In this document: piece by piece, positions 17,969 through 42,310 of the stretch
Layout of the letters: every line of letters starts with the position of its first letter
Position numbering within the stretch: position 1 is the first letter of the stretch
NCBI GenBank assembly: GCA_046735355.1
Contig: JBKPTC010000031.1
Coordinates: 159-64,158 of the forward strand
Direction: 5' to 3'
Source: a bacterium
GTDB taxonomy: Bacteria > Actinomycetota > UBA4738 > HRBIN12
Length of the DNA: 64,000 nucleotides
Made by a program: the position numbers and the translations under genes
Notes under the pieces: generated by a model
Databases searched by the model: none
The model's input: only the letters and a program-made list of their open reading frames with translations
What the model was told of the DNA's origin: nothing

Positions 17969-18013
17969 GTGCCCCCGGCAGGAATCGAACCTGCGACACG
18001 CGGTTTAGGAAAC
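17969..18013. repeat. 45-nt near-perfect direct copy of the 3' end (T-arm, acceptor, anticodon arm) of the tRNA-Arg gene at 38596-38667. Putative distal att site of a ~20.5-kb island.
   Basis: gtgcccccggcaggaatcgaacctgcgAcacgcggtttaggaaac matches 38595-38638 at 44/45 with a 1-nt insertion. Same orientation as the tRNA. Confidence 0.7.
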
Positions 18014-18199
18014 GGCATTGCGCCGTGCGCCGCTTGCGCCGCATCAGGCACTGCGCAACCCGAGGGGCGCTTCGAACATACGTTCGGTTTCGCTCTGACT
18101 TGCAAAAAATGCTCCACGCGCGGTGACGCGGTGCTTCCACGCGGTCGACCGACGCATCGACCGTCGCGCGGTGGAGAATGCACCGGCGTGGGCGAGACG

Positions 18200-19204
18200 A
18201 TGCTGGCGGCCCGGTTCCTGGGTGACCGGAAGGTGCGGATCGAGGACGTCGACCGTCCTCGGCCCGGCGACGGGGAGGTGCTCGTGCGCGTCGACACGTG
18301 CGCGCTCTGCGGGACCGACCGCCGGACCTGGCTCGAGGGGTCGGAGCAGATCCCGGGCCACGAGGTGTCGGGAACCGTCGCCGCGGTCGGTCGCGGCGTT
18401 CCCGAGGCGATCGCCGAGGGCGCCCGCGGGGTGGTGTATCTCGTTGCCTCGTGCGGCGGGTGCGCGGCCTGCGCGATCGGCGCGCCCAATACCTGCCTAC
18501 GGAAGCGGGCGACGTACGGGTTCAGCGCGCCTGGCGGGTTCGCGGAGTACGTCGCCGTTCGCGCCGATTGCTTCCTCCCGGTGGACGAGGCGATCCCCCT
18601 CGACGCCGCGACGAGCCTGCTCGACCTCTTCGGAACCACGACGCATGCGTTCGTCCGGGCGGGGCGCTCCGCGATCGGGTCCGTCGCGGTGATCGGATGC
18701 GGACCGATCGGCCTCGGTGCCATCGCCGTCGCCAGGAGGCTGCGCGTGCCCGTGATCCTCGGCGTCGACACGTCCGGGTACCGCCTCGACCTCGCCGCGA
18801 GGCTCGGCGCGGCGCCGCTCGACGTCGGTCTGGCCGATCGGGAGGTCTCGGCCCGTCGCGTCTCACCGGACGGCTTCGACGTGGTGATCGAGGCGGCAGG
18901 AACGACCTCGTCCCAACGAGCCGCCATCGACGCCTGCGGTCCCGGGGGCGTCGTCGTGGCGGTCGCCCACAGCGACCGGCCTCTCGAGCTCTGGACGTCG
19001 TCGGATCTCATCTCGGTCGAGCGAGCGATCGTCGGCTCCGAGTACTTCCCGCCGACCGTGTTCGCGGGGGTGCACGAGGCGCTTCGCACCGGCGCGCTCG
19101 ACCCGGCGCCGATCCTGACGCACCGGTTCCCGCTCGAACGGATCGCCGAGGCGTGCGAGACGTTCTTCGGAGGCGAGAGCGGGAAGGTGTTGGTCCGTCC
19201 GTGA
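18200..19204 (+). CDS. Zn-dependent alcohol dehydrogenase (MDR family).
   Basis: MLAARFLGDRKVRIEDVDRPRPGDGEVLVRVDTCALCGTDRRTWLEG...GHEVSGTV shows the catalytic Zn motif GHE. CGGCAACAIGAPNTC is the structural Zn site. AVIGCGPIGLG is the Rossmann motif. Confidence 0.85.
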   Translation: MLAARFLGDRKVRIEDVDRPRPGDGEVLVRVDTCALCGTDRRTWLEGSEQIPGHEVSGTVAAVGRGVPEAIAEGARGVVYLVASCGGCAACAIGAPNTCLRKRATYGFSAPGGFAEYVAVRADCFLPVDEAIPLDAATSLLDLFGTTTHAFVRAGRSAIGSVAVIGCGPIGLGAIAVARRLRVPVILGVDTSGYRLDLAARLGAAPLDVGLADREVSARRVSPDGFDVVIEAAGTTSSQRAAIDACGPGGVVVAVAHSDRPLELWTSSDLISVERAIVGSEYFPPTVFAGVHEALRTGALDPAPILTHRFPLERIAEACETFFGGESGKVLVRP

Positions 19205-20199
19205 CCGATCGGTCGCTCACGGCAGCCGTCATCGGTGCCGGCCCCGTCGGCGAGATGCACGCCCGCGCGCTCGCCGCCCATCCGTCCGTACGCCTCGTCG
19301 CCGTCTGTGCGCGCTCGAAGGGGCGGGTGAACACGCTCGCCGAGCGGTACGGCGCGCGCACGGCGATCGGGATCGACGAGCTGCTCGCGGACCCGCCGGA
19401 TCTCGTGTGCGTCGCGACGGGGAACTCCGAGCACGTCGAGCCGACGCTCGCCGCGATCGACGCCGGGTGCCACGTCTTCGTCGAGAAGCCCATCGCGTGG
19501 CGCCCGGAGGAGGCGAGGCGGATGGTCGCTGCGGCGGCGTCCCGGAACTCGCGCCTGGGCGTGAACCTCAACCATCGGTTCTCGGAGCCGTACGGGCGCG
19601 CGCTCGCCTACGTTCGCGACGGGCTGCTCGGGACGCCGGCCTATCTCGCGATGCGGTTCACCGGCGACCTCTATCCCGTGCTCGGCGACCCGTACTGCAT
19701 GCTCATCGAGACGCAGGGACACAGCTTCGACACCATGGAGCTGTTCGGGGGCGAGATCGAGGAGATATCGGCGTTCCTCGCGGATCCTCGCGGGCTGGGC
19801 GTGTTCACGAGCGCCGCGGTCGCCGTCCGGTTCGCGAGCGGCGCCGTCGGAACGCTCCTCGGGAGCTGGGACGCGTCGTATGACCAGCCGCAGGCCGTGA
19901 CCCTCGAGGTGGCCGGAATCGACGGACGCGTTCAGGTGGACAACATCGTGGACGCGGTCCGGATCTACCGCGCGGGCCGGGACGGATACGAGGAGTGGCG
20001 GCCCGGCATCTTCCGCACGGATCGCCGCGACTTCTGGTCGACGATCGATCGCCACATCTTCGCCTTCGTCGATGCGCTTCTCGCCGGGGATGAACCGCCC
20101 GTGACGGGCGAGGACGGCCTCCGCGCGCTCGAGCTGACGTACGCGACCATCCGCTCGTTCGAGGAGGGCGCTCCGGTCCGAATGGGGCGCCCCGCATGA
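19201..20199 (+). CDS. Gfo/Idh/MocA family NAD(P)-dependent oxidoreductase.
   Basis: The GTG overlaps the ADH stop (GTGA). AAVIGAGPVGEMHARAL...VRLVAVCARS...DLVCVATGNSEHVEPTLAAIDAGCHVFVEKP is the canonical N-terminal Rossmann region. Confidence 0.85.
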   Translation: MTDRSLTAAVIGAGPVGEMHARALAAHPSVRLVAVCARSKGRVNTLAERYGARTAIGIDELLADPPDLVCVATGNSEHVEPTLAAIDAGCHVFVEKPIAWRPEEARRMVAAAASRNSRLGVNLNHRFSEPYGRALAYVRDGLLGTPAYLAMRFTGDLYPVLGDPYCMLIETQGHSFDTMELFGGEIEEISAFLADPRGLGVFTSAAVAVRFASGAVGTLLGSWDASYDQPQAVTLEVAGIDGRVQVDNIVDAVRIYRAGRDGYEEWRPGIFRTDRRDFWSTIDRHIFAFVDALLAGDEPPVTGEDGLRALELTYATIRSFEEGAPVRMGRPA

Positions 20200-21467
20200 G
20201 CGCGTCGTTCCGGTGGGCCACCGGGATCGAGGACACGTTCATCCCGCAGGAGGGGCCGGGGCGCCGGCGACTCGACGAGTACGAGCTCGTGCAGCACTAC
20301 CGCTGCTGGCGCGAGGACGTAGACATCGCCGCGGACATCGGCCTCGACGCGATGCGGTACGGCATCCCGTGGTACCGGGTCGAGCCCGAGCCGGGACGAT
20401 ACGACTGGTCGTTCACCGACGCGGTCGTTCCCTACCTCGTGGAACGCCGGATCGAGCCCATCGTCGATCTCGTCCACTACGGCACGCCGACATGGCTGGA
20501 GGGCGAGTTCTCGAACGCCGAGTACCCCGAGCGCGTCGCCGCGTACGCGTCCGCGTTCGCCGAGCGTTACCGGGACCTCGTGCGTTGGTACACCCCGCTC
20601 AACGAGCCGTTCGTGAACGCCGAGCTCTGTGGGTACACGGGCCACTGGCCACCGTACCTGCGCGGCGACGTCGGATTCACGAAGCTCGTGCGGCAACTCG
20701 CCCGCGGGATCGTGCTGACGCAGCGGGCGTTGAAGGAAGTGCGGCCCGACGCGATCTGCGTGCACGTCGAGGCGATCGGCTACGGGACGACGGACGATCC
20801 GGCCCTCCGTGAACGACTCGACCTCGACCTGGAGCGGATGTACGCGGCGATCGAGCTCGTGCGGGGTGGCGTCGCACCCGGCTCGACGTTGGACCGGTAC
20901 CTCCGTGCCAACGGGATGGCCGAGCGCGACCTGGCCTGGTTCGCCGACCATGCCGTCGAGATCGACGTCGTCGGCGTGAACTACTACCCGTTCATGAGCG
21001 TGTGGCGTCGGTGGGTAGAGGGCGATGCCGTGCGTCAGGAGGGCGTGTGGGGGGGCGGCGAGGCCCTGGCGCGCGTCGTGCGCGACTACCACGAGCGTTA
21101 CGGCCGTCCGATCTTCATCACCGAGTGCAGCCTCAACGAGGGCGCGCTGCGAGGAAGCGGCTTCGGCGTGCCGCCGTATCCCGTCGACGGTCGGGAGGGA
21201 TCGCGCCGGGCCAGGTGGCTCGACGAGGCGGTGAAGACCGTCGCCGACCTTCGCGCCTGCGGGGTCCCGGTCGTCGGCTTCTGTTGGTGGCCGCTGTACG
21301 ACCTCGTCAACTGGGAGTACCGCGAGGGCACCGGGCCGGTCGAGCGGTACCTCGAGCCGATGGGGCTGTACGCGCTTCGCCCGGGATCCGACGGCCGGCT
21401 GCGCCGGGAGCGCCTTCCGGTCGCCGACCGGATGGCGGAGATCATCGCGACCCGTTCGGAGCCGTGA
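20196..21467 (+). CDS. Glycoside hydrolase family 1-like (beta-glycosidase).
   Basis: ATGA overlap with the upstream stop. FRWATGIEDTFIPQ, YTPLNEPFV (acid/base Glu) and IFITECSLNEG (nucleophile region) fit the GH1 (beta/alpha)8 pattern. Confidence 0.75.
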   Translation: MSASFRWATGIEDTFIPQEGPGRRRLDEYELVQHYRCWREDVDIAADIGLDAMRYGIPWYRVEPEPGRYDWSFTDAVVPYLVERRIEPIVDLVHYGTPTWLEGEFSNAEYPERVAAYASAFAERYRDLVRWYTPLNEPFVNAELCGYTGHWPPYLRGDVGFTKLVRQLARGIVLTQRALKEVRPDAICVHVEAIGYGTTDDPALRERLDLDLERMYAAIELVRGGVAPGSTLDRYLRANGMAERDLAWFADHAVEIDVVGVNYYPFMSVWRRWVEGDAVRQEGVWGGGEALARVVRDYHERYGRPIFITECSLNEGALRGSGFGVPPYPVDGREGSRRARWLDEAVKTVADLRACGVPVVGFCWWPLYDLVNWEYREGTGPVERYLEPMGLYALRPGSDGRLRRERLPVADRMAEIIATRSEP

Positions 21468-22636
21468 TCTCGGACGCGCCCGACGAGCGGCTCCGCGACC
21501 AGATCCGGCGAGCGGCGGCCGTCTTCGAGGACCGGACGGGGCGACGGCCGGACGGCGTGTGGGCGGCGCCCGGCCGCGTCAACCTCGTCGGCGAGCACAC
21601 CGACTACAACGACGGGTTCGTGCTCCCGTTCGCGATCGATCGCCACGCCGTCGTCGCGATCGGGCTTGCGCGCGATCGCCGGCTGCGTCTGTGGTCGGCG
21701 CAGGAAGAGACGACGGTCGACGTCGCGGCGGAGGACGTCAGGCCCGGGATGCCGGGCGGGTGGGGGGCCTATCCGGCGGGCGTGTTCTGGGCGCTCGCCC
21801 GGGCGGGCATCGAGGTTCCGGGCTTCGACCTCGTCGTCGACGGCTCGGTCCCGATCGGGTCGGGCGTGTCCTCGAGCGCCGCGCTCGAATGCGCGGTGGG
21901 CCTCGGCCTCGCCGAGCTCGCGGGATCGGCGCCGGATCGCGTGGAACTGGCGCTCGTGGCGCAGCGCGCCGAGGTCGAGGCGGTCGGGATGCCGTGCGGC
22001 GTCATGGACCAGATGGCGTCGATGCTGTGCCGTGCCGGTCACGGGCTCTTCCTCGACGCGCGCGATCTGTCGTTCGAGCACATCCCGCTCGAGGCTCCAG
22101 GCCTGTCGATGCTCGTCGTCGACACGCGGGTCGCACGACGGTTGACGGATGGCCGCTACGCGGAGCGCCGGGCCGAATGCGAGAGCGCGGCGGAGATCCT
22201 GCGCGTTCCGGCGTTGCGCGACGCCTCGGCCGCCGACGTCGACGGGGCGCGTGAAGCGCTCGGACCGATCCGGTACCGACGCGCTCGCCACGTCGTGAGC
22301 GAGAACGCCCGTGTGCTCGCGGTCGTCGACGCGGCCCGGGCGGGACGGTGGGACGAGATCGGCCCGGTGCTCTCGGCGTCACACGCGTCCCTGCGGGACG
22401 ACTTCGAGGTCTCGAGCCCGGAGCTCGATGCCGTCGTCGACGCGGCACAGGCGGCGGGCGCGCTCGGCGCGCGGATGACCGGCGCTGGATTCGGGGGGTC
22501 CGCGCTCGTCCTGGCGCGGGCCTCGACGGTCGAGGACGTCGTACGCGAGATCGAGACGGGGTTCGGGCGTCGCGGGTTCGAGCGGCCGACCACCGCCGAG
22601 GTGCGGCCGGTGGACGGCGCCCGCCGCGTCCGGTGA
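21464..22636 (+). CDS. galK: Galactokinase (GHMP kinase).
   Basis: The GTG overlaps the GH1 stop. APGRVNLVGEHTDYNDGFVLPFAID is the galactokinase signature. PIGSGVSSSAALECA is the GHMP ATP-binding motif. Confidence 0.85.
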   Translation: MISDAPDERLRDQIRRAAAVFEDRTGRRPDGVWAAPGRVNLVGEHTDYNDGFVLPFAIDRHAVVAIGLARDRRLRLWSAQEETTVDVAAEDVRPGMPGGWGAYPAGVFWALARAGIEVPGFDLVVDGSVPIGSGVSSSAALECAVGLGLAELAGSAPDRVELALVAQRAEVEAVGMPCGVMDQMASMLCRAGHGLFLDARDLSFEHIPLEAPGLSMLVVDTRVARRLTDGRYAERRAECESAAEILRVPALRDASAADVDGAREALGPIRYRRARHVVSENARVLAVVDAARAGRWDEIGPVLSASHASLRDDFEVSSPELDAVVDAAQAAGALGARMTGAGFGGSALVLARASTVEDVVREIETGFGRRGFERPTTAEVRPVDGARRVR

Positions 22637-22734
22637 GCCGGGGGGCGCGTTCCCGGCGGCCACGCGACAACGGTCGGCTCCCGCTCGGAGCAAGGCGGGA
22701 GTATCATCCGAGACCGTCTCGGGAGGGGGTTCCG

Positions 22735-24024
22735 ATGTCGGGTGTTCGAACCGTCGCGGCCGCGATCGCCATCACGATGCTCGTCGCCGTCGGGTGCAGT
22801 GGCGGGGGAACCGAGAACGCGCCGGGAACGATCGTGGTGATGCTGCCGAGCGACAATCCAGGAGACATCCAGCTGCGCCGGGCGCAGGCCGAAGCGTTCA
22901 TGAAGTCGCATCCGAAGATCAAGGTGCAGGTGCAGGTCATCCCGTCGGAGGGGTACAACGAGCGGGTCTTCACCAGCATCGGTGGGGGGAACGCCCCCGA
23001 CATCTTCAACTCCGGCGACGTCGTGATCCCGTCGATCGTGCAGCGACACGTCGCCCTGGACCTCAACCAATTCGTCAAGAGAGACAACTACGACCTGGGG
23101 CAGTTCTACCCGCAGGTGATCCAAGGGCTGACGCTCGACAACCAGCTCGTCGGGCTCACCGACAACTGGGACACACAGGTCATGTACTACAACCGCGATC
23201 TGTTCCAGAAGGCGGGCGTGCCGGAGCCGACGGCGGACTGGACGTGGGACGACGTCGTGTCGGCGGCGCAGAAGATCACGTCGGGGTCCGGGGGCAGCAA
23301 GACATGGGGGCTGCTGTACGAGACGTGGTTCGCACCGCTCGATGATCAGGTCTACTCCTTCGGGGGACAGGTGTTCAGCGACGACGGCAAGCAGTGTCTG
23401 CTCGACGAGCCGCAGAGCGTCGCGGCGCTACAATCGATCGTCGACGTGATGAAGGCCGGGTACGCGCCCCAGCCGCAGGTCTTCGAGCAGGAGGGCCAGG
23501 ACCCGTTCTCGATCTTCGCTGCGGGTCACGCCGGGATGTGGATCGGTTCCGGCCGGTGGTCGGCGTTCGACCTGCAGGGCGTGAAGGACCTGGACTGGGC
23601 GATCGCGCCGCGGCCGAACGGGCCCGATAGCCCGCGGAGCAACTTCTTCCACCTCGCGATGTACGCGATCACCTCGGCCAGCAACGACAAGAACAACGCC
23701 TGGGAGTTCCTGAAGTACATGGTGAGCCCGGAGGGCATCACGCAGGCGTTCGAGAGCATGCAGGGTATCCCGTCGCGGCCGGCTCTCGCCGAGGATCCGA
23801 AGATCACCAACACGGATATCGTTCAGCAGCACGACGCGTTCCAGCCGTTCGTGGAGTCGCTGCCCACCGTGCGGGCGGCCCCGTTCCTCTCGAATTTCTT
23901 CGAGGTCGATGACGCGATCGGAAACGGCCTCGATCCGATGTGGCGGGGCGAGGCCGACGTCCAATCCACGGCCACGAAGGTATGCCAGCGCGTCGACGAG
24001 CTGCTGTCCGAGCAGCAGTCGTAG
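22735..24024 (+). CDS. ABC transporter extracellular solute-binding protein (family 1, carbohydrate); lipoprotein.
   Basis: RBS gggagggggt before ATG 22735. Lipobox MLVAVGCSGGG. Overall family-1 SBP pattern. Confidence 0.8.
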   Translation: MSGVRTVAAAIAITMLVAVGCSGGGTENAPGTIVVMLPSDNPGDIQLRRAQAEAFMKSHPKIKVQVQVIPSEGYNERVFTSIGGGNAPDIFNSGDVVIPSIVQRHVALDLNQFVKRDNYDLGQFYPQVIQGLTLDNQLVGLTDNWDTQVMYYNRDLFQKAGVPEPTADWTWDDVVSAAQKITSGSGGSKTWGLLYETWFAPLDDQVYSFGGQVFSDDGKQCLLDEPQSVAALQSIVDVMKAGYAPQPQVFEQEGQDPFSIFAAGHAGMWIGSGRWSAFDLQGVKDLDWAIAPRPNGPDSPRSNFFHLAMYAITSASNDKNNAWEFLKYMVSPEGITQAFESMQGIPSRPALAEDPKITNTDIVQQHDAFQPFVESLPTVRAAPFLSNFFEVDDAIGNGLDPMWRGEADVQSTATKVCQRVDELLSEQQS

Positions 24025-24051
24025 CACCGTCCAGGCACCGGGGAGTGGTCG

Positions 24052-25038
24052 ATGTCGGACCAGGCACCTGACGCGATCGCGAGGCCGCTCGGCGATCAAA
24101 CCGGCGGGCTCCCGGCCGTCGCGATCCCCGTCCCGCCGCGCCCGAGTCTCCGCGAGCGATGGCTCAGTCGCGACACGCTCGCCGCGTATCTGTTCCTGGC
24201 GCCGGCGCTCGTCCACTTCTTGGTCTTCTTCCTCGGCCTCGTCGTGATCTCGCTCGGCCTGTCGTTCATGAGCTGGGATCTGTTCAGTCCTGCGAAGTTC
24301 GTCGGTCTCGCGAACTACAAGCGCCTGCTGTTCGAGGACCCGGACTTCTGGCCGACGTTCTGGCGGACGACCTACTACGTCGTTCTCGTCATCCCGACGG
24401 CCGTCGCCGCGGAGCTTCTGCTCGCGCTCGCGGTGAACACGCGGCTGCGGGCGATCAAGTTCTTCCGCGCCACCTACTTCATCCCCGTGGTGGCGTCGGC
24501 GGTGGCCGTCGCCCTCGTCTGGGGCTGGATCCTCAACACGCAGAGCGGGATCCTCAACTGGTTCCTGGGCTTCTTCGGGATCGGATCGATCGACTGGTTG
24601 GGCAGTCCGCGGCTCGCGATGCCGTCCGTCGCGCTCGTCCAGGTCTGGCGCGGCCTCGGCGAGGGGATGATCATCTTTCTCGCGGGCCTACAGGCGATCC
24701 CGCAGCACCTGTACGAGGCGGCCGAGCTCGACGGCGCCGGTCGGTGGGCCAAGTTCCGGAGCGTCACCTGGCCGCTGCTCGCGCCGACGACCTTCTTCGT
24801 GACGGTGCTCGAGGTCATCGGGTCGTTCCAGGTGTTCGACATGATCTACCTGCTGACGCGCGGTGGCCCGGCGCAGGCGACCACGGTGTACAACTACGAG
24901 CTTTACCAGCAGGCGTTCCGCGACTTCCGGATGGGGTACGCGGCGGCGATGACGTGGCTCTTGTTCGTCGTCATCGGCGTCCTCACGCTCATCCAGTTCC
25001 GCGTGATCAACCGGCGGGTGCAGTATGAGCTCGGCTAG
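24052..25038 (+). CDS. ABC sugar transporter permease (MalF/UgpA-like).
   Basis: Six TM helices. EAA-loop region IFLAGLQAIPQHLYEAAELDGAGRWAKFRSVTWPLL. Confidence 0.85.
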   Translation: MSDQAPDAIARPLGDQTGGLPAVAIPVPPRPSLRERWLSRDTLAAYLFLAPALVHFLVFFLGLVVISLGLSFMSWDLFSPAKFVGLANYKRLLFEDPDFWPTFWRTTYYVVLVIPTAVAAELLLALAVNTRLRAIKFFRATYFIPVVASAVAVALVWGWILNTQSGILNWFLGFFGIGSIDWLGSPRLAMPSVALVQVWRGLGEGMIIFLAGLQAIPQHLYEAAELDGAGRWAKFRSVTWPLLAPTTFFVTVLEVIGSFQVFDMIYLLTRGGPAQATTVYNYELYQQAFRDFRMGYAAAMTWLLFVVIGVLTLIQFRVINRRVQYELG

Positions 25039-25927
25039 CGCCGTCGAGTCGACGACGCCCCCGCAGGCGCAGCGCGTCGCCCCATCCCCGGACCAGGAGG
25101 AGCGCAGCCCGGCGTCCCGGCGGACGGTCGCCTACCTCGGCCTGGCCGCACTCGCGATCGTGTGCGTCCTCCCGTTCGTCTGGATGCTCGCGACGTCGCT
25201 GAAGACCGTCGACGAGGTGATCCGCGAGCCGCACAAGCTGATCCCGTCGGACCCGCAGGTCTCGAACTACACGACCCTCTGGCGCGACTTCCCGATGTCG
25301 GCGTGGATCTGGAATTCGTTCAAGGTCAGCGCGCTCGTGACGGTCGGCGTGGTCGCGACGTCGGCGCTCGCCGCGTACGCCTTCGCCCGGATCGAGTTCC
25401 CTGGCCGCAACCTCATCTTCCTCGCGTTCCTGGCGACGCTGATGATCCCGGGCATGGTGTACCAGGTCCCGAAGTTCGCGCTGATCCAGAGGATCGGGTG
25501 GCAGAACACGCACACCGCGCTCATCGTGCCGGCGCTGTCGAGCGCGTTCGGTGTCTTCCTGCTTCGCCAGTTCTTCCTCACGTTGCCGCGGGAGCTCGAG
25601 GAGGCGGCGCGGATGGACGGCGCCGGCCACATCCGGATCTTCACGCGCATCATCCTGCCGTTGTCCGGCCCTGCGCTGGCCACCCTCGCGGTCTTCACGT
25701 TCGTCGGGACGTGGAATGACTTTCTGAACCCGTTGCTGTTCATCGACGACTATCAGAAGTACACGCTCCAGATCGGTCTCAGCTTCCTGAACGAGCAGCA
25801 TCGGAGTGTCGTGAACTTCAACCGGCTGATGGCGGGCGACGTGATCGCGCTCGTTCCGATGATCGTCGTCTTCATCGTCGCGCAGCGGTATTACGTCCGC
25901 GGCATCGCGCTCACGGGGATCAAGTGA
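25025..25927 (+). CDS. ABC sugar transporter permease (MalG/UgpE-like).
   Basis: Overlaps the upstream permease. EAA loop LPRELEEAARMDGAGHIRIFTRIILPLSGPAL. Confidence 0.85.
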   Translation: MSSASAVESTTPPQAQRVAPSPDQEERSPASRRTVAYLGLAALAIVCVLPFVWMLATSLKTVDEVIREPHKLIPSDPQVSNYTTLWRDFPMSAWIWNSFKVSALVTVGVVATSALAAYAFARIEFPGRNLIFLAFLATLMIPGMVYQVPKFALIQRIGWQNTHTALIVPALSSAFGVFLLRQFFLTLPRELEEAARMDGAGHIRIFTRIILPLSGPALATLAVFTFVGTWNDFLNPLLFIDDYQKYTLQIGLSFLNEQHRSVVNFNRLMAGDVIALVPMIVVFIVAQRYYVRGIALTGIK

Positions 25928-25961
25928 GGCGCGTCGCGGTCGGGACGCTTGTTCGCTGACG

Positions 25962-27811: not shown

Positions 27812-27848
27812 GCGTCCCGGCTCGCGCCGCCGATGTGAGGGTTCCCGC

Positions 27849-28817: not shown

Positions 28818-28913
28818 GCGACGCCCCCTCGGATCGGCCTTCGGCGAGCATAGTGCGTGCCTCCGGCGCAGGCGTTCGCCGCCTTCGGTCCGTCGCTGGA
28901 CCGGGCGCGGCCG

Positions 28914-29723: not shown

Positions 29724-29732
29724 CGTTCGAGC

Positions 29733-32405
29733 CTAGTCGCGACGGTCGAGGCGTGTGACCGGCGCGAACGCCGCGCCCGCCGCGATCTGGCGCAACCGGT
29801 CCACGAGCGCCTCCGCCAGCGGATCCGCATGAGCGGATCCGAGGAGCGGGAACGTGCACAGGATCCCGGCGCCGCCGCCGTGGGCGAACGCCGCGACGGT
29901 CGCGCGCATCCGATGCAGCCACCCGAGGTAGTGGCCGGCGAGCACGTCGGCGCGCTGCGCCGGCGTGTATCCGTCGATGACGAACCGTGGTGTCAGGCCG
30001 TCGAAGGCGAGGTCGACGGCGGGGCCGACCGCGAGGTTCCGGGTGAGCGCCGGCGAGAGCCATCCCATACCGGCCGCGAGCGCCCAGCCGCTGCCGTAGA
30101 GGGAGCTCGCATCGCCGTTCTCGCACCCGAACGCCTCGAGATGCACGGCACCGTCCGCGGGCAGGGCGTCCTCGTCCATCGCGACGATGACGGCCCGTCC
30201 GCCGCCCCGGAGGTGCGCCTCGACGTCGCCCCACCGGGTGGCGACCGGGATGTCTCCGAGCGGATGCTCGCTCGCCGCGGGGAACAGCCAGATTGGTGCG
30301 TCGTTCGTCGCGACGATCCGATCGCCGTCGACCCACCGGGTGAGGAGGGTCGTCCTCGTCGGATGCTCGACGCCCGGCGCCTCGATCTCGATCCGCTCTC
30401 CGGACGGCGTACTCCCGCCGATGTCGAGCGGTTCCAACCGCCACCGGACCTCGCCCCTCGCGGCGCCGTCGCGCGCCATGGTCATCACACCCACGAGGAT
30501 CCGTTCGCCCGACCGGTACCGGTTGCGTTCGGGGAGCGCGATCACCACGTCCGGCGCGTTCACGCGGCGGAGCCGTTCGAGTCCGGCCTTCGGGCGCCGG
30601 CGCATGTCGAGCAGGCCGTTCGCCTCCCAATGCACGTCGGTGAACTCCGTCACGACGTATCCGGCGATCTGCGGATGGGAGCGCAGGTCCTCGATCTGCA
30701 GGCTCAGCCCGTCCACCTCGTGCCGCTGACTGACATCGACGAACGCCTCGAACGAGCCGAAGACCTCCGCGAGACCCCACTCGTCGAACCGCTCGCGAAC
30801 GCCGGCGGGACGCACGATCCCCGCGCTGGTATCCCCGCCGGTCTCGAACCACCAGGGTTCCCGGCCGTCGGCGTCCTGCAAGCCCTCGGGATCCGGAAGT
30901 CCCCACATCCCGAACTCGGAGAGGATCAGCGGCTCCGATCCGCGCCGGCTCGCGTCGCGGAAAGGGCTGTACGTCGCCGACGGATCGGACACCCAGCCGG
31001 CCGTCCAGTCGCGCCAGGACGCGGTCTGTTCGGGGACCGAGCGGTAGAGGTGGAAGTCGTTGAGATCGGACTCGACATGGAAGCTCGGCGGACAGGCCGA
31101 GTTGTCGACGACGAGCCGCGTCGGATCGAGCGATCGCGCCCAGCGATACGTCTCGCGGAGCCATTCGCGATCGCCCGGGTCGGTCGCGAGGTCCGTTCCC
31201 CAGTCCTCGTTGACGATGCTCCGGATGACCAGCGACGGGTGGTTCGCGTCGCGCCGCACCATCCCCTCGAAGGTCTCGCGGGCGCGCCGCCTCGCGTCCT
31301 CGGTCGAACGGCTCCAGCTCGGCGGCTCCTCCCACACCAGCACGCCGCCCCGATCGGCGGCGTCGAGGTAGCGCGGGTCCGGCGGCTTGATGTGGCAGCG
31401 AAGCAGGTTGAGGCCGAGCTCTCGGGCGCGCCGCATCTGCTCGGCGAGCTCGGTCGTCGTTCCGGGCGTGCAAACGTCCCCCATCCAATAGTCCTGATCC
31501 AACGCGCCCAGCAGGTACACGGGCTCGTCGTTGAGGACGACCCTTCCGTCGCGCACGCCCACCGTCCGGAAGCCGAACGAGTCGGCAGCGCGGTCGACGA
31601 CGCGATCGCCCTCGAGAACCTCGAGGTCGAGCTCGTACAGATGCGGTGCGCCGGGCGACCACGGCTGCGGGTCCGGTACGATCGCCCGCACCGCGAGCTC
31701 CCCGGGCTCGGCGACGCCCGCCGCGCGCTCGTGCCCATCGTCGTCGAGGACAAGCCACCGCAGCCGGCGCTCGGCCGGCGCGCCGCCGAGCTGCACGCGC
31801 GCCGACAGCTCCGCCGACGCGGGGTCCGCCCGGATCTCGATGCGCTCGACGAACGTCTCGCCGCGCCGCTCGAGCCACACGGACTGCCAGATGCCGCCGA
31901 TCGGCCCGTACCAGCTCTGCTTGCCGTGCGGGATCTCGGCGAACGGGAACGGGCCGGCGTCGTCGTCCGGCCCGACGTCGAGTACGCGGACGGTCACCGT
32001 GTTCGCCGCGTTCGGTTGGATCAGCTCGGTGACGTCGAGGACGAACGGGAGATAGCCACCCTCGTGCTCGCCGGCGAGCCGGCCGTTCACCCACACCGAG
32101 GCGAAGTAGTCCACGGCTCCGAAGCCCAGGTGGATCCGGCCGCGGACCGGACCCAGCGGTTCGAGCACGCGCTCGTACCATGCGGTGCCGGCCCAGAGGC
32201 GGAGGTCGTCGAACTGCGCCTGCCACGGCGCCGGGACGCGCACGCGCCTGGGGGCGCCGCACGCTCGGTTGCGTTCCTCGACAGCGACGAAGCGCGCACC
32301 CGGTCCGGTCGGGAGCGCGCCGACGAGGTCGGGCCAGAACGACCAGTCCCCGTCGAGCGATGCACGGAACCGTTCTCGGGCAGAGGGAACGTTCCCGCGA
32401 ATCAC
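29733..32405 (-). CDS. Glycoside hydrolase family 2 (beta-galactosidase/beta-mannosidase-like), about 890 aa.
   Basis: The GTG start overlaps the AKR stop (GTGA at 32402-32405). N-terminal RASLDGDWSFWP...VPAPWQAQF sugar-binding domain. GH2 TIM-barrel region NLLRCHIKPPDPRYLDAADRGGVLVWEEPPSW...IVNEDWG. The ORF upstream of 32405 is R-rich junk. Confidence 0.8.
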   Translation of the reverse strand: MIRGNVPSARERFRASLDGDWSFWPDLVGALPTGPGARFVAVEERNRACGAPRRVRVPAPWQAQFDDLRLWAGTAWYERVLEPLGPVRGRIHLGFGAVDYFASVWVNGRLAGEHEGGYLPFVLDVTELIQPNAANTVTVRVLDVGPDDDAGPFPFAEIPHGKQSWYGPIGGIWQSVWLERRGETFVERIEIRADPASAELSARVQLGGAPAERRLRWLVLDDDGHERAAGVAEPGELAVRAIVPDPQPWSPGAPHLYELDLEVLEGDRVVDRAADSFGFRTVGVRDGRVVLNDEPVYLLGALDQDYWMGDVCTPGTTTELAEQMRRARELGLNLLRCHIKPPDPRYLDAADRGGVLVWEEPPSWSRSTEDARRRARETFEGMVRRDANHPSLVIRSIVNEDWGTDLATDPGDREWLRETYRWARSLDPTRLVVDNSACPPSFHVESDLNDFHLYRSVPEQTASWRDWTAGWVSDPSATYSPFRDASRRGSEPLILSEFGMWGLPDPEGLQDADGREPWWFETGGDTSAGIVRPAGVRERFDEWGLAEVFGSFEAFVDVSQRHEVDGLSLQIEDLRSHPQIAGYVVTEFTDVHWEANGLLDMRRRPKAGLERLRRVNAPDVVIALPERNRYRSGERILVGVMTMARDGAARGEVRWRLEPLDIGGSTPSGERIEIEAPGVEHPTRTTLLTRWVDGDRIVATNDAPIWLFPAASEHPLGDIPVATRWGDVEAHLRGGGRAVIVAMDEDALPADGAVHLEAFGCENGDASSLYGSGWALAAGMGWLSPALTRNLAVGPAVDLAFDGLTPRFVIDGYTPAQRADVLAGHYLGWLHRMRATVAAFAHGGGAGILCTFPLLGSAHADPLAEALVDRLRQIAAGAAFAPVTRLDRRD

Positions 32406-33328
32406 GCCGGGCCCGGCGCGACCTTGTCGATGAGCCGCCGCTCCTCGTCGGAGAGCTGAGTGCCCGCCGCAGCCGCGTTCTGCTCGACCTGTCGGGGATC
32501 CTTCGCACCCGGGATGGTCGTCGACACGGCCGGGTCCGAGAGGACGAACGAGAGCGCGATCTGGGACAGCGGTCGATCGTCGCTCTGGAGCCGTCGCAGC
32601 CGCTCGGTCTGCTCGAGCTGGTCGGCGTACCATGCCTCGCCTAGCCATCCACGCCTGATGTCGCCCTGGGGGAACGTCGTCTCGGGTGTGAACTTGCCGG
32701 TGAGAATCCCCATGCGCAGCGATCCGCGTGCGAGCGTCCCGATCTGGTGCTCGAGGGCGTACGGGAGAAGCTCGGCCTCGGGCGAGCGGTTGAGGATCGA
32801 GTAGTCGAACTGAAGAACCTCGCATGTCCCGTTCCGATCGAAATGCCGGAGGTGATCGATCTCGTTCGTGCTCACGCCGTAGGAGCGGATCTTGCCGTCG
32901 GCCCGCAGCTTGTCGAACGCCTCGACGAACACCTCGGTGTTCTCGTCCCACCAGAGATGACACTGATAGACGTCGATGCGGTCCGTCCGCAACCGACGCA
33001 GCGATCCCTCGCAGCTCTCGATCACCATTGCGGGATCGGTGTATGCGTTCGGCCGCTCGCCACCGCTGTGCCACAGGCCGACCTTCGTCGCGATCACCGC
33101 ATCGTCCCGCCGCCCCTGGAGCGCTCGGCCGACGATCTCCTCGCTCCGGCCGCGCCCGTACACGTCCGCCGTGTCGAACAGGTTGATCCCAAGGTCGACC
33201 GCGCGGCGGATCGCGGCATCGGACGTCCGGTCATCCACCGGGCCCCAGGCATCCCCGCCGATCGCCCAGCACCCCATGCCGACCTCCGACACGCGGATGC
33301 CCGTTCGCCCCAGCCCCCGGTACTGCAT
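32402..33328 (-). CDS. Aldo/keto reductase.
   Basis: RBS aggaagaaagggg before ATG (complement of 33326-33328). MQYRGLGRTGIRVSEVGMGCWAIGG...NLFDTADVYGRGRSEEIVGRAL. Confidence 0.85.
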   Translation of the reverse strand: MQYRGLGRTGIRVSEVGMGCWAIGGDAWGPVDDRTSDAAIRRAVDLGINLFDTADVYGRGRSEEIVGRALQGRRDDAVIATKVGLWHSGGERPNAYTDPAMVIESCEGSLRRLRTDRIDVYQCHLWWDENTEVFVEAFDKLRADGKIRSYGVSTNEIDHLRHFDRNGTCEVLQFDYSILNRSPEAELLPYALEHQIGTLARGSLRMGILTGKFTPETTFPQGDIRRGWLGEAWYADQLEQTERLRRLQSDDRPLSQIALSFVLSDPAVSTTIPGAKDPRQVEQNAAAAGTQLSDEERRLIDKVAPGPA

Positions 33329-33365
33329 CGAATCGACCCCTTTCTTCCTGGTCCCGGCTCGGCTT

Positions 33366-34292
33366 TCAGGTGCTCTCGGGCACGCCCCAGTGCGACAGGC
33401 CGAGGAACGGATAGCGGCTCGCGTCGGCCATTCCGAGCGCGTCGAGGAACTTCGCGAACCCCCACCGCGGCCGATACCCCAACACCCGCTTGGCCTTTTC
33501 GACGGGCCACAGGAAGCGCGCCCAGATGTGCTCTCGCGGGTCGATGCCCCTGCGTTCGAAGACCTCAGTGCATCCGGGCCAGTGGCGCTCGAGGACCGCG
33601 ACCGGATCATCGTGCATGGCGCGCGCGTCGGCCTGCACGAACGGGGTGTCGGCCATGATGTCGAACGCGTCGAAGCCGCCGTCCGGGTCGTGATCGAGGG
33701 CCACGAGCACCGAGTGTGCGACGTCCCGCTCGTCGACGCCGCCGAAGAGCAGGCGAAACCCGTAGTGCTCGAACGAGGCCGGCACGTACATCCCGAACCG
33801 CAAGGCGACGACGCGCATTCGGCCGATCCGACCGTTGTACCGTCCGAGCTCCTCAGCGAGAACCTTCGAGGCGCCGTAGACGTCCGTCGGCAGCGTCGGC
33901 AGGCCCTCGTGCACCCACGCCCACGCGTCGGAGGGTGCCTCGAGACTGCGACCGTAGACGCCCATCGTGCTCGCGAGCACAACGCGGTCGATGCTGGCGC
34001 CGGCGGCCGCCTCGAACACGTTGAACGCACCGTCGACGTTGATCGAGAAGAAATCGCGCGCGGGCCAGTGGGCGAGATGAATGCCGTGCAGGGCCGCCGC
34101 GTGGACTACCGCGTCACAGCCGTCGACCGCCTTCGCGACCGCGTCGGCGTCGCGGACGTCGCCGACGATGGACTCGACCGATTCGTCGATCGGGCGGAAG
34201 TCGAACGCGACGGGCTCGTGACCGGCCTCCCGCAGCGCAGGGATCGTCGCCCGTCCGAGGTTCCCGCCGGCGCCGGTGATCAGGACGCGCAC
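33366..34292 (-). CDS. NAD-dependent epimerase/dehydratase family protein.
   Basis: MRVLITGAGGNLGRATIPALREAGHEPVAFD Rossmann motif. Catalytic-region Y..ASK (VYGASKVLAEE). Confidence 0.85.
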   Translation of the reverse strand: MRVLITGAGGNLGRATIPALREAGHEPVAFDFRPIDESVESIVGDVRDADAVAKAVDGCDAVVHAAALHGIHLAHWPARDFFSINVDGAFNVFEAAAGASIDRVVLASTMGVYGRSLEAPSDAWAWVHEGLPTLPTDVYGASKVLAEELGRYNGRIGRMRVVALRFGMYVPASFEHYGFRLLFGGVDERDVAHSVLVALDHDPDGGFDAFDIMADTPFVQADARAMHDDPVAVLERHWPGCTEVFERRGIDPREHIWARFLWPVEKAKRVLGYRPRWGFAKFLDALGMADASRYPFLGLSHWGVPEST

Positions 34293-34296
34293 GTCG

Positions 34297-35313
34297 TCAT
34301 CCCCCTGTTCCGACCGCCGGCGCCTCGTCGGACTCGACCGAGGGTCCCGACCCGCCGTTGACGACCGGCCACCCGTTCACCCACTCGATCGGATCGATGA
34401 AGAGGTAGCGGTAATTCGTGAAGTCTCCTCGAATCATCGCGTGGTACACGATCCAGTCGCGGCCGTCGCCGTCCCGGATCGTCGAGTTATGGCCCGGGGC
34501 GTTCACGCTCGCGTTCGCGGCGAGGATCGGGTTGTTGGGGTCGCGCTCGAATGGTCCCGTCGGGGACGAGGAGCGGGCCACCATCACCGCGTAGTGCGCC
34601 TCGGTCCCACAGCACGCGTCTCCCGAGTACATCAGGTAGAAGAAGCCGCCGTGCCGCAGCACCCAGGCACCCTCGACGAGACCCTCGTACGGCCGGTCCG
34701 ACGGCTCGAGGACGTCCGTCCGCTCGCCCTCGAGCGCGAGGCCGTCGTCCGAGAGCCGCTGGACGTGGATCGGCACACCGTCGGAGCCCCAGTAGATGTA
34801 CTTCGTCCCGTCGGCCTGCATGACGAACGGATCGATCGCGTCGAATCCCTTCTCGCCGACGATGAGTGGCTTTCCGATCGCGTCCTCGAACGGACCGGAG
34901 GGGCTCGCGGAGGTCGCGACCCCGATCGCCATCCGCGCCGTCTCGAGGTAGCGCGCGGAGAAGTAGAGGTAGTAGGTCGCCCCGAACCGGACGATGTGCG
35001 GCGCCCAGATGTCGCCGTTGTCCGTGCCCGGCGGCGTCCAGTCAGGGCGCTCGCTGAACGCGTCGCCGACGAGCCTCCAATGGACGAGGTCGGTCGAGTG
35101 CAGCACCGGGACGTTGTAGAAGACCGCGTCGTGATACGACTGCGTCGTGTACGCGTAGTAGGACCCGTCGTCGGCCCGGATGATCGACGGGTCGGGAGCA
35201 TCGTTGTGCAGGACGGGGTTCCGGTACGCGGGGTCTCGTGATTGCACGAACCAGACGGCCACGGCGCCGACCAAGGCGACGACGGCGACCGCGACGAGGA
35301 GCCGGCGCGTCAC
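34297..35313 (-). CDS. Glycoside hydrolase family 43, membrane-anchored or secreted.
   Basis: N-terminal TM/signal MTRRLLVAVAVVALVGAVAVWF. NPVLHNDAPDPSIIRADDGSYYAYTTQS...STDLVHWRLVGDAF...WAPHIVRFGATYYLYFSA are the GH43 blade motifs. Confidence 0.85.
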   Translation of the reverse strand: MTRRLLVAVAVVALVGAVAVWFVQSRDPAYRNPVLHNDAPDPSIIRADDGSYYAYTTQSYHDAVFYNVPVLHSTDLVHWRLVGDAFSERPDWTPPGTDNGDIWAPHIVRFGATYYLYFSARYLETARMAIGVATSASPSGPFEDAIGKPLIVGEKGFDAIDPFVMQADGTKYIYWGSDGVPIHVQRLSDDGLALEGERTDVLEPSDRPYEGLVEGAWVLRHGGFFYLMYSGDACCGTEAHYAVMVARSSSPTGPFERDPNNPILAANASVNAPGHNSTIRDGDGRDWIVYHAMIRGDFTNYRYLFIDPIEWVNGWPVVNGGSGPSVESDEAPAVGTGG

Positions 35314-35368
35314 GTCGGTCCGCCGCCTCGCGTGGCGTTTCGCATGCGGGCGAGTCTAGCGATGGCCT

Positions 35369-35427
35369 GCCGGCCGTTCCGGCCGGCTCGCTCCGGCTCT
35401 GCCGGCCGTTCCGGCCGGCTCGCTCCG
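35369..35427. repeat. Two direct repeats (32-bp period), each holding the GC-rich palindrome gccggccg-ttc-cggccggc, in the divergent promoter between GH43 (-) and the ABC ATPase (+). Candidate operator sites.
   Basis: gccggccgttccggccggctcgctccg at 35369-35395 and again at 35401-35427. Stem gccggccg / cggccggc. Confidence 0.55.
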
Positions 35428-35480
35428 CTCGGGCGGCCATCGTAGAGTCCGGTTACCCAACGTTGGTGGCCGGAGGTGCG

Positions 35481-36743
<1,263 letters not shown>

Positions 36744-37196
36744 GCAGCGCGTTCGGCGTCGGACGCGACGTCCGGCTCTGGCGATCTGACGGTCACGGCG
36801 ATCCGACGACCCCGGTCGCGACCCGTACTCCTGTCCGTCGCGTCTGGCGCGACCCGGGGAACCTTGACCCGCACGCCGAGCGGGCGGATAGTTCGAGGGT
36901 CGCCGTTTCGCGGGGGCGCAATTGGTTGCGTCGAAGCCTCGACCCCTTCCGAACCTTCCGCGAAACGTGTGGGTGCTCGGCCGTGCGTCCTGGGAGTTAG
37001 CCCCGTGTTTCGGTTCCCTACGCCTGCCGGGAGGCGCTCAGCAATCTCGGCGGTTTAACGATGGGCGCGGAGGACAAGCCGTTGGCGCTCCGATCGTTCA
37101 CGGATCGATCGGTCTAACGGACGCGCACTCGAGCGTGAGGAAATCTTCGGACCAACGTCTGGTTGGAAGCTGAGACATGACCCTGGCCGGAAGGTC

Positions 37197-38378
37197 CTAG
37201 GGCGTATAGCCCACGGCGGTGGCCCAGGCGAGGTCCACGTGGAGGGTGCCCGAGGCATCGGACGTATCCACCGTCACCGTGGACGGCACGCGGTTGCCGG
37301 TCGGCGACAGGATCGTGGCCGACCCGGTCCAGCCGATGAAGTTCTTGGTGGAGTAAAGCACTCTCGCGAGCGGCACCTGCTGGAAGTTGTGGGCCTTGAT
37401 CGCGCTCTGCACAAGGAGGTTGACCGAGTCGAAGGTGTAGGGACTCCACAGGCCGGGTGCCGAGTGGAATTTGGCCTCGAAGGCGGACAGGAAGGGGGCC
37501 GAGCCCGCGAAGTCGGACGGGGCGGGCACGCCGAGCACGGGGCAGTTTTGGACGGCAGGGATCCCGGCGTCGGTCACGTAGCCAACCGAGGCCGAGGCGT
37601 AGTCAGACAGGCAGTTCGTGCCCGCGCCGACCTCAAGCATCTGGTCGGCCACCAGCGCGCCCTCGGGGTAGTACAGGTCGGCGTAGACCCCGGTCGGATG
37701 GGTTGCCAGGGCCTGGGCCACGGCTGCCTGGATCACGGCGGGATCGTTGGTGGCGCTGGGGATGATCGGGATGTTGGCGGATACGGTGACTCCAGCGGCC
37801 TGGAGCCCGGCCACGAGCGAGGCGTCTGCCCCCTGGGTATAAGCGGTGGAGTTGTCATAGACGACGGCCACCGAGGTGTTCTTCTGCCAGGTAGTCAAGG
37901 CCTGCACGGCGATCGGCGAGATCTGGTCGTTCATGGGCTGGAGCGTGACACCGTAGCCTTCGGTCGAGGTCGACGAGGTGAGGCGGATCGGGACCAGCTT
38001 GTCCTTGATGAACAGCGGCAATGTCTGCAGGCCTACCCCCGAGTTGTACGGACCCACCACCCCGTCGAGTCCGGCCCGGATGGCAGCCTTGGCTGCAGCC
38101 ACGCCGACGGTAGGATCGGCCGCATCGTCGATCGGGACGATCTGGACCTGACGTCCGAGCACCCCACCGGCCGCGTTGATCTGGTCGGCGGCTAGTTGAG
38201 CACCCTCGAGCATGCCGATGCCGACATCGGACTGGCTTCCGGTGAGCGGTCCCTCGAGGCCGATCTTCCAGACCTTGGGCTGGGATGCTCGGACCGTGCC
38301 CTGGGCTGCCGCATCAAAAGAGGTGATGAACAAGGCCACGCCCAGGGTGAAGGCGAGCTTCTTGGCGAGATGACGCAT
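37197..38378 (-). CDS. ABC transporter substrate-binding protein, Leu/Ile/Val-binding (LivJ-like) family.
   Basis: Signal peptide MRHLAKKLAFTLGVALFITSFDAAAQG, then a periplasmic-binding-protein type I pattern (IGLEGPLTGSQSDVGIGMLEGAQLAADQINAAGGVLGRQV). Confidence 0.8.
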   Translation of the reverse strand: MRHLAKKLAFTLGVALFITSFDAAAQGTVRASQPKVWKIGLEGPLTGSQSDVGIGMLEGAQLAADQINAAGGVLGRQVQIVPIDDAADPTVGVAAAKAAIRAGLDGVVGPYNSGVGLQTLPLFIKDKLVPIRLTSSTSTEGYGVTLQPMNDQISPIAVQALTTWQKNTSVAVVYDNSTAYTQGADASLVAGLQAAGVTVSANIPIIPSATNDPAVIQAAVAQALATHPTGVYADLYYPEGALVADQMLEVGAGTNCLSDYASASVGYVTDAGIPAVQNCPVLGVPAPSDFAGSAPFLSAFEAKFHSAPGLWSPYTFDSVNLLVQSAIKAHNFQQVPLARVLYSTKNFIGWTGSATILSPTGNRVPSTVTVDTSDASGTLHVDLAWATAVGYTP

Positions 38379-38444
38379 TGAAGCTCCATTTTAGGTCGAG
38401 GTGGGGCCGGAGTGTCCAGGATGACCCCGAACACGACAGTGGAT

Positions 38445-38488
38445 GGTCGCCGGGCAGGAATCGATCCTGCGACACGCGGTCAGGAACC
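38445..38488. repeat. Degenerate second copy of the tRNA-Arg 3' end (about 80% identity), 107 bp from the intact tRNA. Likely an older att remnant or a tRNA pseudogene fragment.
   Basis: ggtcgccgggcaggaatcgatcctgcgAcacgcggtcaggaacc shares the same 1-nt insertion as the copy at 17969-18013. It lacks a D-arm and 5' acceptor, so it is not a functional tRNA. Confidence 0.5.
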
Positions 38489-38595
38489 TGATGGCCACCG
38501 CTGTCCGCTTACCTTGTACGCCAGCGGTTATGTGCTGGGTCCGTCGAGTCTGGACGAGACCGGTCCGATCAGCGACGCAAAGCCGCTGGTGGAGG

Positions 38596-38667
38596 TGCCC
38601 CCGGCAGGAATCGAACCTGCGCACGCGGTTTAGGAAACCGCTGCTCTATCCACTGAGCTACGAGGGC
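38596..38667 (-). tRNA. tRNA-Arg (anticodon CCT).
   Basis: Reverse complement GCCCTCG-TA-GCTC-AGTGGATA-GAGC-A-GCGGT-TTCCTAA-ACCGC-GTGC-GCAGG-TTCGATT-CCTGC-CGGGGGC-A folds into a canonical cloverleaf. The 7-bp acceptor has one G-U pair. T-loop TTCGATT. Anticodon loop T-T-CCT-A-A. Confidence 0.85.
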
Positions 38668-42246: not shown

Positions 42247-42310
42247 ACAGACGCGCCGTCGGTCGCGCGGTCGCGCGTCGCGGCGACGAGCCTCAGGCGG
42301 GCCGACATCC

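Follow-up and report, generated by a model that had tools for sequence, protein, structure and literature searches.

A block of genes plausibly devoted to sugar utilization lies beside the only tRNA gene found in a 64,000-nucleotide stretch of DNA from an uncultured member of the Actinomycetota (contig JBKPTC010000031.1 of assembly GCA_046735355.1, positions 159 to 64,158; this whole stretch is referred to here as the window). On balance, we consider that this block (18014-38593) is probably a recombinase-less genomic island that is bounded by attachment (att) sites, resembles a cis-mobilizable element (CIME), and forms part of a composite tandem array at an integration hot spot.

The tRNA in question is an intact minus-strand tRNA-Arg(CCT) gene, which was detected by ARAGORN and by the Rfam tRNA model (69.4 bits), in agreement with a preliminary description of this DNA that had been made from the bare sequence. 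That description had also pointed to a direct copy of the 3' end of the gene at the far boundary of the block. Our alignment confirms it: this distal copy (copy 1) and the proximal repeat within the gene share 44 identical positions and differ by one indel, in the same orientation, and a 25-mer covering the T-arm and acceptor occurs exactly twice in the 64 kb, against none expected (100 shuffles). In the tRNA sense, copy 1 begins with the final base of the 5' anticodon stem, takes in the anticodon loop, variable loop, T-arm and 3' acceptor strand, and stops one base beyond the discriminator. It lies 3' of the intact gene and in direct orientation, which is the geometry of an attL/attR pair, and both attL and attR are intact across the 43-nt core used in other genomes. 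An element that enters and rebuilds a tRNA gene leaves an intact gene and a displaced fragment (PMC4383910). The assignment of the repeat as an att-type scar is well supported.

The sole difference between copy 1 and the gene is an extra base in the variable loop, which reads GTGTC in the copy and GTGC in the gene. The acceptor sequence of the window gene, GCCCTCG, is paired with a GTGTC loop in 21 of 22 genomes and with GTGC in none. The GTGC loop accompanies a GCCCCCG or GGCCCCG acceptor, and several of the genomes with this pairing carry a Gaiellales, Gaiellaceae or Thermoleophilia label. The window gene thus joins a GCCCTCG acceptor to a 4-nt GTGC loop, a combination unseen among the intact genes of 57 other genomes, and copy 1 carries the native 5-nt loop that is expected of a displaced original 3' half. 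Recombination at a point 5' of the variable loop would yield just this arrangement, leaving a gene with a chromosomal 5' half and an element-derived 3' half and displacing the native 3' half. From these sequence patterns the window gene may be a chimera, an interpretation that supports integration without proving it because a one-base deletion in the gene gives an identical picture.

The simple two-repeat island of the preliminary description is not borne out, and the structure is instead a composite array, with a decayed att copy and an IS-end remnant inside it. A 16-mer from the T-loop region, allowing up to two mismatches, has four matches in the window, all on the minus strand, against 0.04 expected. 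One of the additional fragments, copy 2, extends from the anticodon loop to the acceptor and lies close to the tRNA gene. It matches copy 1 at 36 of 43 positions and has the same 5-nt variable loop, but its seven differences include three acceptor mismatches and a change at T54, so that copy 2 cannot function. The idea that it is a full-length pseudo-tRNA was rejected, as it is not detected by the Rfam tRNA model at E<10 and is not foldable as a tRNA. Next to copy 2 is a 42-nt remnant of the left terminus of an IS481-family insertion sequence (IS), with 86% identity to locus L071 and 80% to locus L062, in both of which the matching sequence is directly 3' of tRNA-Arg. The IS481-like element in these relatives starts 5-8 nt past the tRNA 3' end, and the counterpart of the 42-nt segment is its outer end, which leads into four subterminal CTCCGGCTGATGNTTGAC repeats. 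In the more distant L062 the element (1637-3200) has a complete IS481-type transposase (HTH_32, LZ_Tnp_IS481 and rve domains) followed by inverted CTCCGGCTGATGNTTGAC copies, and in L071 (element at 21667-22109) the transposase is reduced to a truncated, sequence-similar N-terminal fragment. In the window there is no IS481 transposase, and the 42-nt left-terminus homologue is all that remains. This homology to the post-tRNA sequence of L071 and L062 suggests that copy 2 marks a former junction between a tRNA 3' end and the IS, of which the stump was left. Copy 2 and the IS-end remnant would then together constitute an older scar, positioned either within the island or at its tRNA-proximal edge. 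The presence of an IS481-like element beside tRNA-Arg in two genomes reflects either site-specific insertion there or an old inherited insertion.

Read in the tRNA sense, the array comprises the tRNA, 103 nt of spacer, copy 2, the IS stump, 20.3 kb of cargo, copy 1, a further 640 nt and the BTAD regulator gene. The short spacer between the tRNA and copy 2 has no similarity to any of the loci compared and no motif in common with the distal island end. Possibly it is the sole leftover of whichever element most recently recombined with the tRNA, or else the P' arm of that element. A possible fourth tRNA 3'-end remnant, TTCGTTTCCTGCCGGGGCACCA, is heavily decayed, with seven mismatches across a 26-mer. 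It sits just past the stop codon of a beta-lactamase-like gene, at the edge of the lower-GC DNA that occupies the first 9.8 kb of the window.

The attachment site in other genomes

We scanned 185,579 species-representative genomes for the att core, written with an optional variable-loop base as TTCCTAAACCGCGTG(T)CGCAGGTTCGATTCCTGCCGGGGGCAC, and obtained 67 matches in 57 genomes. Most of these are intact tRNA-Arg(CCT) genes. At least ten are exact-core fragments that have no tRNA 5' half, distributed over at least seven of the 57 genomes, and L062 contains an additional degenerate one. All of these fragments begin within the anticodon stem/loop, end at ...GGGGGCAC, and lie next to or downstream of the tRNA. 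A distance of 5.1 kb separates tRNA and fragment in CAVYTE010000015.1, and one of 3.2 kb in L062. In JBKPDU010000125.1 (L012 and L019, 295-11731) two tRNA-Arg 3' fragments 11.4 kb apart enclose a truncated large serine recombinase, an open reading frame (ORF) with a RibD_C domain, and a fructose phosphotransferase system (PTS) operon (EI, PfkB, EIIC, DeoR). This segment is a second sugar-utilization cassette at the tRNA-Arg(CCT) att site. Because the fragments bracket islets beside the tRNA, the scan sustains the earlier view of the repeat as a tRNA-integration scar rather than a member of a family dispersed at non-tRNA sites.

Large serine recombinases are associated with the same site. An intact recombinase gene runs into the tRNA 3' end in two relatives of the window, L072 and L073, and aligns at 82% identity over 253 aa with the truncated copy in JBKPDU010000125.1; the same conserved sequence is found after the tRNA in L072 and L073 as beside the JBKPDU010000125.1 recombinase. 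A 33%-identical ORF with Recombinase and Zn_ribbon_recom domains in a metagenome-assembled genome (MAG) of the Dormibacterota also runs into the tRNA 3' end. Recombinase genes abut tRNA-Arg(CCT) in L072, L073 and L050. All-against-all clustering of 60 loci identified no common integrase family downstream of the tRNA, the large serine recombinase being the sole recurrent recombinase. Taken together, the recurrent fragments bracketing islets and the abutting large serine recombinases indicate that tRNA-Arg(CCT) is a real and repeatedly used attachment site.

Several further features of these loci were observed. In four MAGs from two phyla the large serine recombinases converge on the tRNA-Arg(CCT) 3' end or just follow a 3' fragment; according to the 2014 Islander paper, tyrosine integrases alone were known to target tRNA genes, and large serine recombinases were not. 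A conserved arm, ATACGGTGGTCCAAAAA..CGCGGAAGACCGG, follows the att core in L072, L012, L044 and L066. On the element side, several fragments are flanked by sequence that looks like a diverged tRNA 5' half (GTCCTCGCAGGTCAGCGCATAGGAGCGAATCGAA is one example), and the copy in L070 is even called as a tRNA by ARAGORN. This resemblance suggests that the attP of these elements may hold a near full-length tRNA-like sequence. A junction between a fragment and a BTAD gene in L024 was considered as a conserved attR-BTAD boundary and rejected as coincidence, since just the N-terminal BTAD domain is common to the two proteins (45% identity, 250 aa).

Gene content and flanks of the block

The gene content of the block was assigned using Pfam and NCBIfam (Table 1), and the earlier list of its genes is upheld by these searches, although galactokinase alone passes a curated NCBIfam cut-off. 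From their domain assignments, the bracketed genes plausibly form a sugar-utilization set in which the ABC transporter is accompanied, also inside the block, by its ATPase. In other metagenomes a MalK-type ATPase gene often directly follows the homologue of the central TIM-barrel gene (TIM barrel b), and on this basis the MalK-type ATPase of the block plausibly serves the transporter of the block. An imperfect palindrome, CGAACATACGTTCG, at 18073-18086 is symmetric at 12 of 14 positions and lies around 110 nt upstream of the alcohol dehydrogenase (ADH) operon, within the island and close to its end. An operator function is possible, but there is no regulator gene within the block.

Table 1. 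Features of the window and of related tRNA-Arg(CCT) loci. Positions refer to the window unless a locus is named.
Feature	Position	Strand	Basis or remark
Possible fourth tRNA 3'-end remnant	9806-9831	minus	16-mer with 1 mismatch
Small gene, pair with BTAD regulator conserved in relatives	13034-13318	minus	
BTAD/SARP-AAA regulator, left flank, outside island	13448-17326	plus	Pfam
Non-coding spacer, BTAD stop codon to copy 1	17327-17968		640 nt
Copy 1, distal repeat (attR side), intact displaced tRNA-Arg 3' fragment	17969-18013	minus	45 nt
Operon-like run, Zn-ADH to TIM barrel a	18200-27811	plus	
Zn-ADH	18200-19204	plus	Pfam
Gfo/Idh/MocA	19213-20199	plus	Pfam
Divergent GH1-like protein	20196-21467	plus	Pfam
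Galactokinase	21500-22636	plus	Pfam; NCBIfam curated cut-off
SBP_bac_1 binding protein	22699-24024	plus	Pfam
Two permeases	24052-25927	plus	Pfam
MDR dehydrogenase	25962-27017	plus	Pfam
TIM barrel a, xylose-isomerase-like	27014-27811	plus	Pfam
TIM barrel b, xylose-isomerase-like	27849-28817	minus	Pfam
Small-molecule S-adenosylmethionine (SAM) methyltransferase	28914-29723	minus	Pfam
GH2	29733-32459	minus	Pfam/NCBIfam
Aldo-keto reductase	32402-33313	minus	Pfam/NCBIfam
NAD epimerase/dehydratase	33366-34292	minus	Pfam/NCBIfam
GH43	34297-35313	minus	Pfam/NCBIfam
MalK/UgpC-type ABC ATPase	35238-36743	plus	ABC_tran, OB_MalK, TOBE_2; ORF as listed, ABC domain from ~35541
LivJ-like solute-binding protein, tRNA-proximal cargo gene	37197-38378	minus	Pfam (Peripla_BP_6)
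Remnant of IS481-family left terminus	38398-38439	minus	42 nt, next to copy 2
Copy 2, decayed tRNA 3' fragment	38446-38488	minus	103 nt from tRNA 3' end
Non-coding spacer, tRNA 3' end to copy 2	38489-38593		~103 nt
Intact tRNA-Arg(CCT) gene	38594-38667	minus	ARAGORN; Rfam tRNA 69.4 bits
Proximal repeat (attL side), 3' part of tRNA-Arg	38595-38638		44 nt
Large serine recombinases	L072:21016-22100, L073:14694-15778, L012:498-1364, L050:1387-2481		Resolvase/Recombinase/Zn_ribbon_recom
Flanks resembling tRNA 5' half	L064:6845-6890, L012:240-294, L019:3650-3699, L070:2210-2282		

On the distal side, the 640-nt spacer between copy 1 and the BTAD gene has no Pfam match in its ORFs and no similarity to the genes that follow BTAD orthologues. 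It was considered as a remnant of the AlkZ-like or BBE-like neighbors of those orthologues, and this was rejected as none was detected. On the 5' side of the tRNA, the gene at 38835-39749 is one of a large family whose ~310-aa proteins have no Pfam match of their own; one source describes a homologue as BamB-like. In other genomes, homologues have PD40/Tricorn-type beta-propeller genes and ECF sigma factors nearby (L002, L003), and the best non-self match is only 66% identical. The contexts of the homologues of this tRNA-adjacent PD40-like protein (L001-L003) were of no use for comparing loci, as this is a paralogous ECF-sigma-associated family without synteny. The compositionally deviant part of the window is its first 9.8 kb (1-9.8 kb), where the GC content is 0.65 against ~0.70, GC at third codon positions (GC3) is 0.75, and tetranucleotide and codon usage are the most deviant in the window. 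Genes there include a matrixin-like peptidase, MgtC and an acyltransferase_3 protein.

Origin of the block

We consider it likely that the 20 kb between the repeats is integrated cargo. In the mechanism we propose, a circular element whose attP held a copy of the 3' part of the tRNA would have undergone recombination with the tRNA gene within or close to the anticodon loop. The gene would have been rebuilt from its chromosomal 5' half and an element 3' half bearing the 4-nt variable loop, and the original 3' half with its native 5-nt loop would have been displaced by 20.6 kb to become copy 1. The cargo would have consisted of the ABC transporter, galactokinase, GH1-like, GH2 and GH43 enzymes, and Iol-like dehydrogenases and isomerases. 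Given that it has no recombinase and a native-looking composition, the island would be of an ordinary cargo-only or decayed type. CIMEs can move only with a recombinase supplied by another element. By definition they keep attL and attR, while genes for integration and transfer have been lost or never existed in them, and accretion and the transfer of whole composites are described for them (PMC5704250). In tandem arrays a second element may enter either att copy (PMC7192596). We infer that the whole composite, old scar included, would have arrived together, fairly recently, from a closely related actinobacterium, as this best reconciles the host-like composition with the intact distal repeat. 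A more far-reaching version, which we regard as rather unlikely, makes the block a member of a group of cargo-only metabolic cassettes that travel among uncultured Actinomycetota through the shared tRNA-Arg(CCT) anticodon-loop att site, with recombinases, including large serine recombinases, provided in trans or in cis by co-resident elements. Were this so, the chimeric tRNA of the window, with its intact attR, would record a recent transfer of the composite (accretion) type.

Relatives of the window were identified using its alpha-glucan phosphorylase gene (48423-50534) as an anchor, giving L071, L072 and L073 at 76-82% identity. These three keep the order PmbA/TldD ... phosphorylase-globin-DDAH-aminotransferase, followed by a variable 6-7 kb and then by tRNA-Arg(CCT) in the same orientation. 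Relative to them, the window has insertions at 41183-43711 and 44965-48423. The former holds an ECF sigma factor and unknown ORFs between the DDAH-like gene and the aminotransferase, and the latter holds a baeRF family-2 release-factor-like protein and an MFS transporter between the phosphorylase and the globin. The segment from aminotransferase to tRNA differs in every relative. The DNA after the tRNA also differs, being a large serine recombinase element in L072 and L073 and a truncated IS481-like transposase fragment in L071; no LivJ-like or other island genes are present in the 0.4-1.1 kb that is readable 3' of these tRNAs. For the opposite boundary we located three orthologues of the BTAD regulator (78%, 73% and 67% identity), beside which the small upstream gene is kept. 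They are followed by PAP2/BBE-oxidase/DAGK, by AlkZ-like/AhpC/ECF sigma genes, or by a 482-aa ORF whose N-terminus looked, from its sequence, like that of an FAD/BBE-type oxidase. Since the genes after the BTAD orthologues and the DNA after the tRNA both differ in relatives, both junctions of the block are lineage-specific. The empty site that had been predicted, with the tRNA flank beside the BTAD regulator, was not found, and the BTAD orthologues are not near a tRNA. A metagenome scan with the central island gene, from which 10-kb flanks would extend to either end of the block, recovered short contigs alone above 70% identity and no syntenic island.

Phage_integrase, Resolvase, Recombinase and rve have no Pfam match in the long ORFs of 17.3-41 kb and 1-13 kb. 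The block contains no Pfam domain of an integrase, a relaxase or an FtsK-like transfer protein; an integrase combined with one of the other two would identify an integrative and conjugative element (ICE), an actinomycete ICE (AICE) or an integrative and mobilizable element (IME). Nor does it have the phage domains of a prophage; megablast against 50,697 phage records returned no match, and the att core has 0 matches in viral contigs. In a whole-block megablast against plasmids, the ABC ATPase gene alone matches (3% coverage).

A number of observations weigh against the island interpretation. Pfam detects no integrase, excisionase, resolvase, transposase, relaxase, transfer or phage domain in the long ORFs of 1-41 kb, and no remnant in the window matches the large serine recombinases from related loci by tblastn. 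These searches agree with the preliminary description that no integrase is recognizable; its suggestion of a recombinase-independent acquisition gains no support. No arm-type motifs are common to the two island ends. Neither an exact empty attB nor a second occupied site was recovered in the 0.4-1.1 kb past the relatives' tRNAs or at the three BTAD loci, and no tRNA, tRNA fragment or sugar genes lie beside the three BTAD orthologues. The block shows no compositional sign of foreign origin: its GC content is 0.69, its tetranucleotide profile correlates with the right flank at r = 0.984, and its relative synonymous codon usage correlates at r = 0.985 with core genes that are syntenic with relatives. 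The comparison of GC and tetranucleotides with the flanks that had been proposed as a check thus leaves the block indistinguishable from core genes. The best relative of the central gene, on a 3.3-kb contig with the MDR-TIMa-TIMb order kept, is 86% identical, which is the divergence of the best relatives of core genes. Host-like composition and this degree of identity imply either that the donor was a close relative or that the genes are native, and vertical presence of the block in the clade is possible given its core-like divergence. A simple deletion, and not a chimera, could account for the single-base difference in the tRNA. Lastly, integration at the intact tRNA every time would make copy 2 the younger of the two copies, yet copy 2 is the decayed one.

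The same observations lead to the most serious competing explanation, which we judge appreciably less probable than integration, namely that the sugar genes are native and vertically inherited within a plastic region and that the tRNA fragments were left as scars when other elements (of the large serine recombinase or IS481-like kind, or small islets) came in and were later lost by deletion. The block would then be bracketed by copy 1 and the tRNA through history, and the block would not be the integrated cargo. Such an origin would account for a composition and codon usage equal to those of the core, for the absence of mobility genes from the block, and for the core-like 86% divergence of the central gene; it also fits a region that is mosaic on both sides of the tRNA, with the two insertions and the variable aminotransferase-tRNA segment, and that retains an IS-end remnant between tRNA and block. 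It is harder to reconcile with copy 1, as an attR-type fragment marks the far end of DNA entering at the tRNA and extra rearrangements would be needed to place one there otherwise. Moreover, relatives with the tRNA in the same neighborhood do not have these genes in the 0.4-1.1 kb 3' of it, and metabolic operons are bracketed in the same way in other genomes.

An ancient integration that became fixed and ameliorated completely, its integrase decaying slowly until it was gone, would also explain the host-like composition and the lack of any recombinase remnant. The preliminary description had preferred such an old, fixed island. We find this improbable since neutral decay sufficient to erase an integrase and ameliorate 20 kb should have damaged copy 1 too, whereas copy 1 has 0 changes in 43 positions relative to the native type of 21 genomes and the inner copy 2 has 7 in 43. 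It is very improbable that the arrangement is an assembly artefact in which a chimeric MAG contig was joined inside the 44-nt repeat, with the BTAD and island sides derived from different strains or loci. The source is indeed a metagenome-assembled contig, and the BTAD orthologues of relatives are never near tRNA-Arg. Nevertheless, common assemblers finish with k-mers longer than a 44-nt repeat, there is no break in composition at the copy 1 junction, and copy 1 has a non-tRNA 5' flank as do real attR sites elsewhere.

Relation to known integrative elements

Should the block be an island, sugar-utilization capacity would be exchanged as att-bounded cassettes at one tRNA gene in a poorly sampled soil/sediment actinobacterial lineage. 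Beyond that, the block is one more routine case of genome plasticity around a tRNA. Among the by-products of the analysis, the most useful is the collection of related loci whose large serine recombinases abut tRNA-Arg(CCT).

The window block resembles the Islander type of tRNA/tmRNA island in having an intact tRNA at one end and a direct 3' fragment on its 3' side (PMC4383910). It corresponds in particular to the anticodon-loop 'A' sublocation, with a fragment that reaches from the anticodon loop to the 3' end, a length of 20 kb and a reused site. It differs in lacking an integrase gene, in its non-anomalous composition, and in its extra internal decayed fragment. Having no integrase gene, the block would be rejected by the Islander algorithm, and island finders that demand an integrase drop recombinase-less islands of this kind.

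CIMEs, such as those related to ICESt1 of Streptococcus thermophilus and the accreted pathogenicity islands of Streptomyces, are alike in retaining attL and attR while lacking recombination and transfer modules, and in their tandem or accretion setting at a tRNA 3' end (definition in PMC5704250). In the window no cognate ICE or recombinase was identified within the 64 kb. Descent from an ICE or IME, and mobilization by a cognate element through accretion, would be hinted at only indirectly, by the older att scar and IS-end remnant inside the block and by the recombinase-bearing elements found at this site in other genomes. The system described in PMC2440964 has an actinobacterial host, a tRNA 3'-end target and a size range of 10-20 kb in common with the block, which differs in having no int, xis, rep or tra (FtsK-like) genes and a purely metabolic cargo.

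The large serine recombinase elements at tRNA-Arg(CCT) (L072, L073 and the JBKPDU010000125.1 segment) differ from the block in that the window has no recombinase, no conserved P' arm (ATACGGTGGTCC...) and no tRNA-like P arm. They are alike in their att core, TTCCTAAACC...GGGGGCAC, and one of them, that of JBKPDU010000125.1, likewise holds a sugar operon, the fructose PTS, between two tRNA fragments.

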